From the IMG/VR virus record IMGVR_UViG_2693429676_000014, positions 1 through 5,226 of that record: 5,226 bases of DNA. One strand, given 5' to 3'. The DNA comes from a virus (lineage: Duplodnaviria; Heunggongvirae; Uroviricota; Caudoviricetes). Position 1 is the stretch's first letter. Each line of letters opens with the position of its first letter. The position numbers and the translations under genes are program-made. The notes beneath the pieces were generated by a model. That model did not search any database, was not told the DNA's origin, and saw only the letters and a program-made list of their open reading frames with translations. Shown piece by piece: positions 1,243-5,226 of this stretch.

Positions 1243-2609
1243 TTTCTTCACTCTTTTCTGCATCTTCAGGTATCAATTGGCGCGATAATCTTTACGACGC
1301 TTCATTTCGTGGCGTTCCGTTTTCGGTGGAGAGCGACGAGGGTTCGTTCGGACGCCGCGTTCAGGTCCATGAATACCCAAACCGTGACAAACCGTACACG
1401 GAAGATCTCGGGCGTGCCACGCGACGGCTGACGATTAATGCGTATCTCGTTGGTGATGATTACGCAGAGCAGCGCGACAGGCTGATTACAGCGATTGAAA
1501 CCGCCGGGCCGGGGACGCTGATCCATCCGCAGTTCGGTGAAATGCAGGGCTGTATTGACGGGCAGGTGACCGTTTCTCACTCCGGCACTGAAGGCCGTAT
1601 GTGCCGGGTTTCATTTCAGTTTGTTGAGAGCGGGGAACTGTCATTTCCGGTCGCCGGAGCTGCAACCGCCAGAAAACTGGAGGAGTCGTCCGTATTCCTG
1701 GATGAGTTGATTGAAGACATGTTCGGCGATTTTGATCTCGCGGGAATACCGGACTTTATTCAGAACGATGTTATTGCCCGGACGACCGATATGCTGGGAA
1801 CCGTTCAGACAGCTTTCAAAATGGTTAATTCGGCTGTTTCTGCCGGAGCGAGACTACTGCAGGGCGATTTATCCGTCATTCTGATGCCGCCGTCGGTTGC
1901 CAGTGATTTTGTGCATACGTTGCAGGATACCTGGCGGGCCGGAACCCGGCTGGTGGATAACACACAGGATCTGGTGCAGTCCATAACGACAATGTCCGGC
2001 ATTACGCTGGACCCAGGACTGGCACCGCGTGCGGTGTGGCCCACAGATTCCGCATCGGTTATCAGGCAAAAACAGCAGACAAACCTTGTGGCTGCTGTCA
2101 TCCGGACGACGGCAATCAGCGAAGCCACAAGGGCGGTCACTTCACTGCCACAACCCGGAAGCCTGGTGAAAAATCAGCAGGCGGTTGTGGCTGTTGGTGG
2201 TTCCACTGAACGTCAGTCCGATATTATTCACGTTTCTCATCCGGCACTTGACAGCGTGGCAGCCAGCACAGGACAGGATGAGAGAGCGCAACCACCCACG
2301 CGGGAAAATCTCACCATCATACGCGAATCGCTGAACGCGGCGATTGAACAGGAGCTCAGGCGTACGGCGGATGACAGGCTGTTTTTTCAGCTGACGTCAT
2401 TACGTACAGAACTGAACCGGGATATTCAGGCGCGTCTGGTTCAGACGGAGGAAACCGCAGAGCGAACGCCAGCGGAAGTTCTGCCTGCGCTTGTTCTGGC
2501 TGCGTCATGGTACGACGATGCGTCCCGTGAAACTGATATCCTGGATCGAAATGCCATCTCTCATCCGGGCTTTGTTCCGGTCAGGGCATTAAGGGTACCC
2601 GTCAGATGA
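1243..2609 (+). pseudogene. Mu N (gp43)-like DNA circulation protein, 5' end separated from its start by the IS911 insertion
   Basis: The conserved N-terminal motif ...INWRDNLYDASFRGVPFSVESDEGSFGRRVQVHEYPNRDKPYTEDLGRA... (DNA circulation N-terminal domain) begins about 12 codons after the IS end. There is no in-frame ATG, GTG or TTG between the junction (1243) and that motif; the first is a GTG at 1326, inside the conserved region. The ORF-track protein (1170..2609) takes its first 24 residues from IS911 sequence. The frame is otherwise intact to the TGA at 2607..2609. Confidence 0.75.
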
Positions 2610-3682
2610 ATGATACCGTTTTACTTCGGGTTTCCGGTCGCGAATGGGGCGGCTGGACATCCGTCCGTATCAGTGCGGGCATTAACCGTATTGCCCGGGA
2701 TTTTAATGTTGCCATTACCACCCGCTGGCCCGGAAGCCGGGATTATCAACCCCGGATAAAAAATGGTGAGCTGGTTGAAGTGCTTATCGGGGATGAGCCT
2801 GTGCTCACCGGATATGTGGAGGCACTACCGCTTCGTTATGACGCCAGCAGCGTCAGCATGGGAATTGTCGGGCGAAGCAAAACAGCCGATCTGGTTGACT
2901 GCTCTGCTTTGCCACTCCAGCAGAGCGGAAAAAACCTGCTCAGAATAGTCAGTGAACTGGCTGCGCCATTTGGCATCACCGTTGTTGATGCTGGCGTGCC
3001 GCAGACAGCGGTGATTGATGCCCAGCCGGAACACGGCGAAACCGTTGCCGATTGTCTTAACCGGTTACTGGGGCAGGTTCAGACGCTGGCTTATGACGAT
3101 GAATGCGGGCGACTGGTTCTGGGAAAACCCGGAACAGGTAAAGCGGCGACGGCGCTGGTGCTGGGAGAGAATATTCTTTCCTGTGACACGGAAAGAAGCA
3201 TCAGAGAGCGGTTTTCTGAATATCAGGTCAGTGGGCAGCGCCCGGGCAACGACGATGATTTTGGTGAGGCCACCATTGCCGCAATACGTCAGACCATTCA
3301 GGACAGTGGCGTGACCCGTTATCGCCCTTTGTTGATTCAGCAGTCAGGCACAGCAACGACAGCAACCTGTAAGGCCCGTTGTGAATTTGAAGCGCGCCAA
3401 CGGGCTGCGCTTACCCGTGAGACAACATATACGGTTCAGGGCTGGCGGCAGGGCAGTGGCGCGTTATGGCGTCCGGGGTTATCTGTCATCGTTTTCGACC
3501 CGCTGAATAATTTTGATAATGATGAACTGGTGATCGCAGAAGTTACCTATAACCAGGACGACCGGGGCACGACGACTGAATTACGGGTTGGCCCGGCAGA
3601 TGCTTATCTCCCCGAGCCTGTTACCGCCAGGAAGAAAAAAATGTTGAGGAGGATTTCTGATGAACGGGTTTTCTCTTCGTAA
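2606..3682 (+). CDS. Mu P (gp44)-like baseplate hub protein (phage late control gene D family), 358 aa
   Basis: Intact 358-aa ORF. Its ATG overlaps the upstream stop as ATGA (2606..2609), with a weak AAGGG ribosome-binding site 10 nt upstream. Size and position after the N-like gene match the Mu N-P-Q-gp46-gp47 order. Family assignment is from memory. Confidence 0.85.
   Translation: MNDTVLLRVSGREWGGWTSVRISAGINRIARDFNVAITTRWPGSRDYQPRIKNGELVEVLIGDEPVLTGYVEALPLRYDASSVSMGIVGRSKTADLVDCSALPLQQSGKNLLRIVSELAAPFGITVVDAGVPQTAVIDAQPEHGETVADCLNRLLGQVQTLAYDDECGRLVLGKPGTGKAATALVLGENILSCDTERSIRERFSEYQVSGQRPGNDDDFGEATIAAIRQTIQDSGVTRYRPLLIQQSGTATTATCKARCEFEARQRAALTRETTYTVQGWRQGSGALWRPGLSVIVFDPLNNFDNDELVIAEVTYNQDDRGTTTELRVGPADAYLPEPVTARKKKMLRRISDERVFSS
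3646..3652 (+). promoter_or_regulatory. Ribosome-binding site (GAGGAGG) for the gp45-like gene
   Basis: Near-consensus Shine-Dalgarno sequence 7 nt upstream of the ATG at 3660, lying inside the 3' end of the P-like gene. Confidence 0.6.
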
Positions 3683-4193
3683 TCTGATTTCCCGGGCTGT
3701 CATCACGGCGGTGGATTCCGCCAGAAAGTGTCAGTCTGTAGGGTTGAAAATGATAGCCGGAGATCAGAAACAACACGTTGAGCACCTTGAACCTTATGGT
3801 TTTACATCTGCCGCACAGAACGGTGCTGAGGGCGTTGCTTTATTTCCGGCGGGCGATCGTTCTCATGGTGTGGTTGTGGTCGTGGCTGACAGACGTTACC
3901 GGCTGAAAGGACTGAAACGTGGGGAAGTGGCGCTTTATGACGATCTGGGACAGTCCGTTGTCCTGACCCGTTCCGGTATTGTGGTGGACGGGGCCGGGAA
4001 GGCCATAATTTTTAAAAACGCGCCTAAAGCGCGCTTTGAAATGCCAGTCGAATCCACCGCCGATATTACTGACAATTGCGACAGTGGCGGACTCAGCATG
4101 CAGCAAATGCGGCAGGCCTACAATGCCCACAAACATACCGAAAATGGTGATGGTGGCGGGATCACTGACACGCCGGATCAACCGATGGGCTGA
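3660..4193 (+). CDS. Mu gp45 (Q)-like baseplate central spike protein (baseplate assembly protein V family), 177 aa
   Basis: ATG at 3660 with a strong GAGGAGG ribosome-binding site 7 nt upstream, overlapping the last 23 nt of the P-like gene. Motifs typical of the family: RAVITAVD, LEPYGFTS, GEVALYDD. Confidence 0.88.
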   Translation: MNGFSLRNLISRAVITAVDSARKCQSVGLKMIAGDQKQHVEHLEPYGFTSAAQNGAEGVALFPAGDRSHGVVVVVADRRYRLKGLKRGEVALYDDLGQSVVLTRSGIVVDGAGKAIIFKNAPKARFEMPVESTADITDNCDSGGLSMQQMRQAYNAHKHTENGDGGGITDTPDQPMG

Positions 4194-4198
4194 AAATC

Positions 4199-4609
4199 AT
4201 GATGATTAATGTTAACGGGCGACCCGTGTCGACCGGGGCTTCGATCGACCTTCTGACGCGTGCTGTGATTATTTCGCTTTTTACATGGCGGCGTGCCGGG
4301 CGTGATGATGCACCACGGATATTTGGATGGTGGGGGGATACCTGGCCTGCGGTTCAGAATGATCGCACGGGGTCGCGTTTGTATCTGTTGCGACGCAGCA
4401 AGCTGACAAATAAAACCCCGCAGCTTGCCAGAGATTATGTCCGTGAGGCGCTGGCGTGGATGGTGGAGGATGGTGTTGCTTCCCGTCTTGATATTAACGC
4501 TGTCCGGACCGGGACAGACTCGCTGGCACTTGCCATTACCATTTACCAGCGTGACGGCAATATTCACAACATTATTTTTGATGATATCTGGAGTGAACTG
4601 AATGGCTGA
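4199..4609 (+). CDS. Mu gp46-like baseplate protein (phage GP46 family), 136 aa
   Basis: Intact ORF starting 5 nt after the gp45-like stop (ATG at 4199, alternative ATG at 4202) and ending at TGA 4607..4609. Size and position match Mu gp46. No strong ribosome-binding site, so probably translated by coupling or reinitiation. Confidence 0.82.
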   Translation: MMINVNGRPVSTGASIDLLTRAVIISLFTWRRAGRDDAPRIFGWWGDTWPAVQNDRTGSRLYLLRRSKLTNKTPQLARDYVREALAWMVEDGVASRLDINAVRTGTDSLALAITIYQRDGNIHNIIFDDIWSELNG

Positions 4610-5195
4610 CAGTCAGTTTTATCGCCCCGGCCTCCCGCAACTTATTTCTATGATCCGGAGCGATTTATTAACCCGCTTTGAGCAGGATACGCTGCTTCGT
4701 CGTATGGATGCGGAAGTGTATGCCCGTGTACAGGCTGCAGCCGTACACACGTTGTACGGGTATATCGATTATCTTGCCAGAAATCTGTTACCGGACGTGT
4801 GTGATGAAGACTGGCTGTACCGGCACGCCAGAATCAAACGCTGCCCGCGAAAAGAAGCGGTGGCAGCCCGGGGATTTGTGCGCTGGGATGGCGTAGAGGG
4901 GACGCCGGTATTGCCAGCGGGAACGCAGATCCAGCGTGATAATCAGGTGACCTTTACCACGACGGCGACGGTGACCGCAGCCGATGGTCTTCTCCGGGTG
5001 CCTGTTGTGGCAGACGAACCGGGATCGGCGGGGAATACGGATGATGGTATTGCCATGCAACTGGGAACACCCGTCAGTGGTCTGCCGTCCACAGGGTACG
5101 CTGACACCATTACAGACGGTGAAGATATTGAAAATCTGGAAATATGGCGTGCCCGCGTTATGGAACGTTATTACTACATTCCACAGGGGGGCGCA
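4602..5195 (+). pseudogene. Mu gp47 (W)-like baseplate J-family protein, 3'-truncated by an IS1 insertion at 5195/5196
   Basis: Not in the supplied ORF track. Manual translation from ATG 4602 (GGAG ribosome-binding site at 4589..4592, 8-nt ATGGCTGA overlap with the gp46-like stop) gives MADSQFYRPGLPQLISMIRSDLL...AGTQIQRDNQVTFTT...EPGSAGNTDDG...RYYYIPQGGA with no stop. The frame is cut after PQGGA by the IS1 terminus at 5196. Baseplate J assignment is from family-typical motifs (PAGT, AGNTDDG, PQGGA). Confidence 0.8.
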
Positions 5196-5218
5196 GGTAA
5201 TGACTCCAACTTATTGAT
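5196..5218. repeat. IS1 terminal inverted repeat (23 bp, right-end type)
   Basis: GGTAATGACTCCAACTTATTGAT matches the canonical 23-bp IS1 right-end repeat. Confidence 0.8.
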
Positions 5219-5226
5219 AGTGTTTT
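5211..5226 (-). CDS. IS1 transposase InsB (InsAB') extreme C-terminus; last codons plus stop only
   Basis: The reverse complement of the window end reads ...AAA CAC TAT CAA TAA, matching the ...K H Y Q stop ending of IS1 insB as I recall it, with the stop codon (5213..5211) inside the repeat. Too short to confirm independently. Confidence 0.45.

Follow-up and report, generated by a model that had tools for sequence, protein, structure and literature searches.

The baseplate J gene at the right-hand end of the DNA analyzed here, a 5,226-nucleotide stretch that we refer to as the window, is interrupted by an insertion sequence. Very probably, this is a simple insertion of IS1 (IS1A type) at codon 198/199 of the J gene of a phiP27-like prophage, accompanied by a 9-bp duplication of the target. 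The window copy of the gene is a disrupted member of the Baseplate_J family, that is, a pseudogene. The event is an ordinary IS1 pseudogenisation that had already been sequenced in published reference chromosomes and is in this respect already known. The features of the window are collected in Table 1.

Table 1. Features of the window, with positions counted from its first nucleotide
Feature	Position	Strand	Basis
IS911, complete but for the outermost 7 nt (contig end)	1..1242	-	99.6-99.9% identity to annotated copies
DNA-circularisation (Mu gp43-like) gene without its first 25 nt	1243..2609	+	PF07157, E = 3.3e-36
Baseplate hub gene (Mu gp44 / GpP-like)	2606..3682	+	Pfam GpP-like domains
Mu gp45 / gpV-like baseplate spike gene	3660..4193	+	Pfam PF06890, E = 2.1e-26
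GP46-family baseplate gene	4199..4609	+	Pfam PF07409, E = 4.5e-33
Baseplate wedge gene, 5' fragment (codons 1-198 of 360)	4602..5195	+	PF04865, homologues, open frame
Target-site duplication, left copy, 9 bp (GGGGGCGCA)	5187..5195	.	Same 9-mer at the far IS1 end
IS1, first 31 nt, from the right end (IRR) inward	5196..5226	-	Identical to L007 10998-11028
IS1 right terminal inverted repeat, 23 bp (GGTAATGACTCCAACTTATTGAT)	5196..5218	.	Single exact match in the window

Results

The window is a draft contig bounded by IS elements

The window was identical to the whole of a 5,226-bp draft contig of Shigella sonnei (L022, CXCX01000195.1, assembly GCA_001258435.1), and both contig ends were located inside multi-copy IS elements, IS911 on the left and IS1 on the right. 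The accession prefix CXCX is near CXBN, CXBR, and CXBV, prefixes given for S. sonnei isolates of the Holt et al. 2012 collection (PMC5447701), and the present isolate may belong to this collection as well. The short-read assembler could not cross a multi-copy repeat, which is why the window breaks off 31 nt into IS1. The draft contigs L023 and L024 share the IS911 junction and end 27 and 74 nt, respectively, into the same IS1. Furthermore, among the 4,067 collection blocks holding the GP46 protein, the longest contig was only 2-5 kb in 3,664, which fits the segment usually being a contig of ~4.4 kb that runs from one IS1 to another. The contig end is a repeat-induced assembly break, not a biological boundary.

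Exact matches to the GP46 and hub proteins were used to obtain longer loci. These numbered 20 (L002-L021) and came from ~18 assemblies, two of which had been fetched twice. Most of the loci were taken from chromosomes of 4.5-5.0 Mb, and two were draft contigs. Window positions 1243-5226 were 100% identical to positions 7045-11028 of one of these loci, L007. As for the strains, HE616528 is S. sonnei 53G of lineage II and CP019689 is S. sonnei 75/02 of lineage IIIc (PMC5447701).

At the left end, positions 1-1242 matched copies annotated as 'IS3-like element IS911 family transposase,' and the IS911 terminus (...GTGTGCCACTTCA) ended at 1242. The element has entered the DNA-circularisation gene 25 nt downstream of the start codon; the gene aligned to L007 from 7045, 25 nt past the ATG at 7020. 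The contig runs through nearly the whole of IS911 at its left end, rather than breaking at the inner edge of the element or including a k-mer-sized stub of it. No IS911 was present at the position corresponding to 1242/1243 in any of the 20 long S. sonnei loci, and the 459-aa ORF with a GTG start that results from the IS911-cut DNA-circularisation gene is on record in 4 contigs only. The IS911 insertion looks like a rare sublineage event and is a potential sublineage marker.

The last 31 nucleotides are the right end of IS1

The sequence at 5196-5226 was GGTAATGACTCCAACTTATTGATAGTGTTTT. The 23-bp right inverted repeat of IS1 matched once in the window, with 0 mismatches, and in none of 200 dinucleotide-preserving shuffles (0/200), even with up to three mismatches allowed; a chance likeness to IS1 was ruled out on this basis. 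The G at 5196 fits the gene and IS1 alike, and the junction is therefore ambiguous by one base. A canonical IS1 end starts with GG, so we placed the start of IS1 at 5196 and the 9-mer at 5187-5195.

In L007, the element that starts with these 31 nt is 768 bp long (10998-11765) and 100% identical to E. coli elements with the annotation 'IS1-like element IS1A family transposase.' In the sister loci, insA and insB are located past the position of the window end; they are encoded on the minus strand, in antisense to the baseplate gene, and give matches to the Pfam families Zn_ribbon_InsA, HTH_Tnp_IS1, and DDE_Tnp_IS1. The DDE_Tnp_IS1 gene (insB) is nearest the side of the window end and the InsA gene is at the far end, which indicates that the window reads into the right end of IS1. 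The left inverted repeat, IRL (GGTGATGCTGCCAACTTACTGAT), was found at the far end of the element in the sister loci. The characteristics of the IS1 family, namely inverted repeats of ~23 bp, a length of ~768 bp with InsA/InsB (InsAB'), and a duplication of 8-9 bp, were all found, the length, the coding content, and the right-hand duplication being read in the sister loci while the window itself shows 31 nt of the element only. The preliminary description had taken the last 31 nt for the right end of IS1, with the 23-bp repeat starting at 5196, and this was borne out by the exact match and by the identity to L007. Its expectation that IS1 would follow downstream agrees with all 20 long loci, and the expected length of ~768 bp with most of them.

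IS1 splits a baseplate J gene

The reading frame that starts at the ATG at 4602 contained no stop codon up to the last base of the window. It consists of 198 codons of the gene, ending in ...RYYYIPQGGA, and 10 codons derived from IS1 (GNDSNLLIVF). The frame is missing from the ORF list because the tool omits ORFs that run off their source. The interrupted 5' frame of the complete genomes runs 26 codons into IS1 before it meets a stop, and its product is 224 aa long. The 198-aa fragment matched the Pfam family Baseplate_J (PF04865) with E = 3.5e-24 and 85.9 bits (cut-off, 21.1 bits) over residues 69-198, a match that covers only positions 2-134 of the 255 in the profile. The full architecture of Baseplate_J, Baseplate_J_M, and Baseplate_J_C is not present in the window copy, and in the sister loci Baseplate_J_M and Baseplate_J_C are found on the displaced fragment past IS1. 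The preliminary description had read the 4602 frame as entering IS1 after the last codons of the gene, had tentatively explained its absence from the ORF track by the lack of a stop in the window, and had assigned the fragment to the Baseplate_J family; the open frame of 198 codons, the stop within IS1 in the complete genomes, and the Pfam match, respectively, support these three readings.

When IS1 and one copy of the duplicate were removed from L007 in silico, an ORF of 1083 nt (360 codons) without an internal stop was restored. The restored protein matched phiP27 L52 at 351 of 361 aligned positions and a copy from an E. coli prophage at 354 of 361, the shared stop being counted in both cases. 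IS1 cuts the N-terminal Baseplate_J domain midway, and for this reason the baseplate wedge gene has, judging from its sequence, probably been inactivated.

The target duplication and the displaced 3' part are found in the sister loci

In L007, IS1 is followed by GGGGGCGCA and then by GACCCTGATTATG..., which is the remainder of the gene. IS1 was found at exactly the same position in all of the 20 long loci. Its length was 768 bp in most of them, 767 or 769 bp in two, and 449 bp in one strain. The exact junction string and the 9-mer that follows the element were detected in 17/20 sister loci. In the other three, where two loci had one G fewer in a homopolymer and one had a single-base difference in the inverted repeat, the 9-bp duplication was recognized by the right-hand junction; these differences are minor and of the sequencing type. 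The strain with the 449-bp element is represented by CP029794.1 (L011 10998-11446, and L019), in which approximately positions 239-556 of the J-gene IS1 are gone. Either a genuine deletion derivative or a fault in the assembly could account for this copy.

The 3' part of the gene is pushed 777 bp away in the sister loci, and no uninterrupted J gene was found among the S. sonnei loci fetched. It had been suggested beforehand that 5187..5195 would be the target duplication and that the 3' part of the gene had been displaced or deleted. The former holds in the sister loci, where the 9-mer recurs at the far end of IS1 with the remainder of the gene next to it; for the latter, displacement was confirmed in these loci and deletion was not. 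By the same token, the far junction of the present isolate would be expected to be the same as that in the sister genomes.

E. coli homologues are uninterrupted

Intact E. coli genes annotated as 'baseplate J/gp47 family protein' are 1083 nt long and showed 97-99.5% nucleotide identity. They aligned with the window as far as 5196 and no further, and past this position they run on as ...GCGCAGACCCTGATTATG or ...CACAGGGGGGCGCAGACCCTGATTATG. The 9-mer GGGGGCGCA is single-copy in these uninterrupted homologues. No J/IS1 junction was found in 5,426 complete E. coli genomes; the best 30 of 2,725 matches stop at 5196, and any record spanning the junction would have outranked these 30, indicating that none exists in that set. 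A search of the GTDB species representatives, a set suspected to hold few Shigella genomes, with the 30-nt J/IS1 junction gave 0 matches. GTDB is suspected to place Shigella within E. coli.

The neighboring genes form a Mu-type baseplate cluster

The J gene is located in a Mu-type baseplate cluster, as seen from the four Pfam matches upstream and from Phage_Mu_Gp48 downstream in the sister loci. The GP46-family gene ends in a stop codon that overlaps the start codon (ATG) of J (ATGGCTGA). Compared with phiP27, for which the tail module only was covered, the sequence was collinear and showed 96.9% identity over window positions 1254-5195 (3.9 kb). The gene order shared with phiP27 is DNA circularisation, hub, gp45-like, GP46, J, gp48-like, and tail fibre.

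Two variable sites were observed in the hub gene. One is a hexanucleotide repeat, (GCTGGT)n, at 3154-3164, with 2 units in the window, in one E. coli prophage, and in phiP27 (with one base different), and 3, 4, or 5 units elsewhere in S. sonnei. The frame is kept, and the hub proteins are 358, 360, 362, and 364 aa long according to the number of units. With just two hexamer copies, the window gave no repeat in Tandem Repeats Finder; the variability was seen by aligning the sister loci. The hexamer array is a potential typing locus or sublineage marker. The other site is a run of A at 3635-3641, which is A7 in the window and in the three S. sonnei strains compared, and A8 in phiP27 and the E. 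coli prophage. The difference between A7 and A8 shifts the frame of the last hub codons, from ...KKKNVEEDF and a stop to ...KKKMLRRISDERVFSS and a stop, and as a consequence of the shift at A7 the hub gene and the gp45-like gene share 23 nt. The A7 run is located shortly before the ribosome-binding site that serves the next gene. The shift may be another sign of decay.

The prophage carries further IS elements

The S. sonnei prophage adjoins smpB and is heavily degraded. Of its head genes, only a fragment of the prohead-protease gene remains. An IS3-family element is located just upstream of the sheath gene, and copies of IS4 flank the prophage region. A second IS1 (L007 5828-6595) lies after the tape-measure gene, ~450 bp upstream of the DNA-circularisation gene, in the orientation opposite to that of the J-gene IS1 and with a 9-bp duplication of its own, CGTTAAAAC. 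In the usual S. sonnei arrangement, the two IS1 copies are ~4.4 kb apart. According to their gene tables, L015 and L021 appear to be without the second IS1. In strain 75/02, the region is inside a prophage called 'PhiP27' by PHAST (PMC5447701).

Discussion

The InsAB' transposase binds the 23-bp ends of IS1 and makes staggered cuts, 9 bp apart, into which the element is inserted; repair duplicates the target. In the case of the J gene, a 768-bp element of the IS1A type would have transposed into codon 198/199, antisense to the gene, and filling in of the cuts 9 bp apart would have left GGGGGCGCA on both sides. The 5' part would then read 26 codons into IS1 and stop, giving a product of 224 aa, and the 3' part would be displaced by 777 bp. 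The complete ends, the 768-bp element, and the perfect 9-bp direct repeat fit this mechanism. Under a simple insertion, the left end of IS1 (...GTTGGCAGCATCACC) would be joined to GGGGGCGCAGACCCTGATTATG, and the string predicted at the far junction is GTTGGCAGCATCACCGGGGGCGCAGACCCTGATTATG, leading a contig that would carry the 3' fragment of J and the gp48-like gene.

In the present isolate, the IS1 at 5196 might instead be the breakpoint of a secondary inversion or deletion mediated by IS1, with the 3' part of J located elsewhere or lost, but we consider this improbable. The contig does end inside IS1, with the sequence beyond it not visible; the extra IS911, absent from all of the 20 long loci, makes this locus not identical to theirs; and Shigella genomes are reported to undergo IS1-mediated inversions and deletions, IS-driven rearrangements being frequent in them (PMC8072062). 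However, each of the 20 long loci keeps the simple insertion with an intact duplication and an adjacent 3' fragment, and L023 and L024, with the same IS911 junction as the window, simply end in IS1, as the collapse of a repeat predicts. If such a rearrangement had taken place, the IS1 breakpoint together with the rare IS911 would suggest that the prophage is still being dismantled in a sublineage-specific manner and could provide a typing marker.

Two other explanations are far less probable still. As a short-read contig ending at a repeat, the window might have an assembly artefact in its terminal 31 nt, a chimeric k-mer join to the repeat, and the gene might be intact in the real genome. This is scarcely credible, given that complete chromosomes sequenced in many independent projects, those of 53G and 75/02 among them, have a base-identical junction, and that every S. 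sonnei locus fetched has the interrupted gene. It is just as hard to believe that two IS1 copies bracketing the ~4.4-kb tail segment constitute a composite transposon and that the junction at 5196 arose when this unit moved. In L007, two oppositely oriented IS1 copies are indeed located ~450 bp upstream of the DNA-circularisation gene and in the J gene, but they have separate perfect 9-bp duplications (CGTTAAAAC at the upstream copy and GGGGGCGCA at the J copy), and phiP27 and the E. coli prophages are collinear with the DNA that separates the two copies as well as with that on either side. We rejected an origin as a composite transposon because a duplication belonging to each IS1 and this collinearity indicate two independent insertions in situ.

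The simple insertion is common to all the S. sonnei genomes examined, lineages II and III included, and is apparently fixed in S. sonnei. Being shared by strains of lineages II and III and absent from E. coli, it most likely predates the common ancestor of at least these two lineages. The prophage was already defective, or on the way to becoming so, at the time of insertion. Given its several other defects, the insertion is probably without cost to the host.

The biological weight of the insertion is small, as it is one among the hundreds of IS insertions catalogued in S. sonnei. The shared IS1 insertion is nevertheless a clean derived character of S. sonnei versus E. coli. Its practical value is in annotation: the 4602 frame is best annotated as a baseplate J pseudogene, 5' fragment, disrupted by IS1.

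Comparison with known systems

The closest known counterpart of the gene is L52 of the Stx2e phage phiP27 (NP_543104.1), an orthologue that is intact in a complete phage, whereas the S. sonnei J gene is split by IS1 in a prophage riddled with IS elements. The N-terminal Baseplate_J domain is also shared with Mu gp47, P2 gpJ, and T4 gp6, and the neighboring genes mirror the Mu order gp43-gp44-gp45-gp46-gp47-gp48. The similarity to Mu gp47, P2 gpJ, and T4 gp6 is at the family level only, and the function is that of the family by extension. As in other contigs broken by repeats, the ends of the window lie in multi-copy IS elements, the difference being that the left end includes an almost complete IS911. 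The 9-mer used as the IS1 target is G+C-rich here (GGGGGCGCA). An expansion of IS1, IS2, IS4, IS600, and IS911 is reported for all Shigella species, and IS1 is the most abundant IS in Shigella, accounting for 42-59% of the insertion sites per genome (Hawkey et al. 2020, PMC7373316). Compared with the IS1 pseudogenes described in Shigella (PMC7373316), the disrupted J gene involves the same element and is in no way different in kind.
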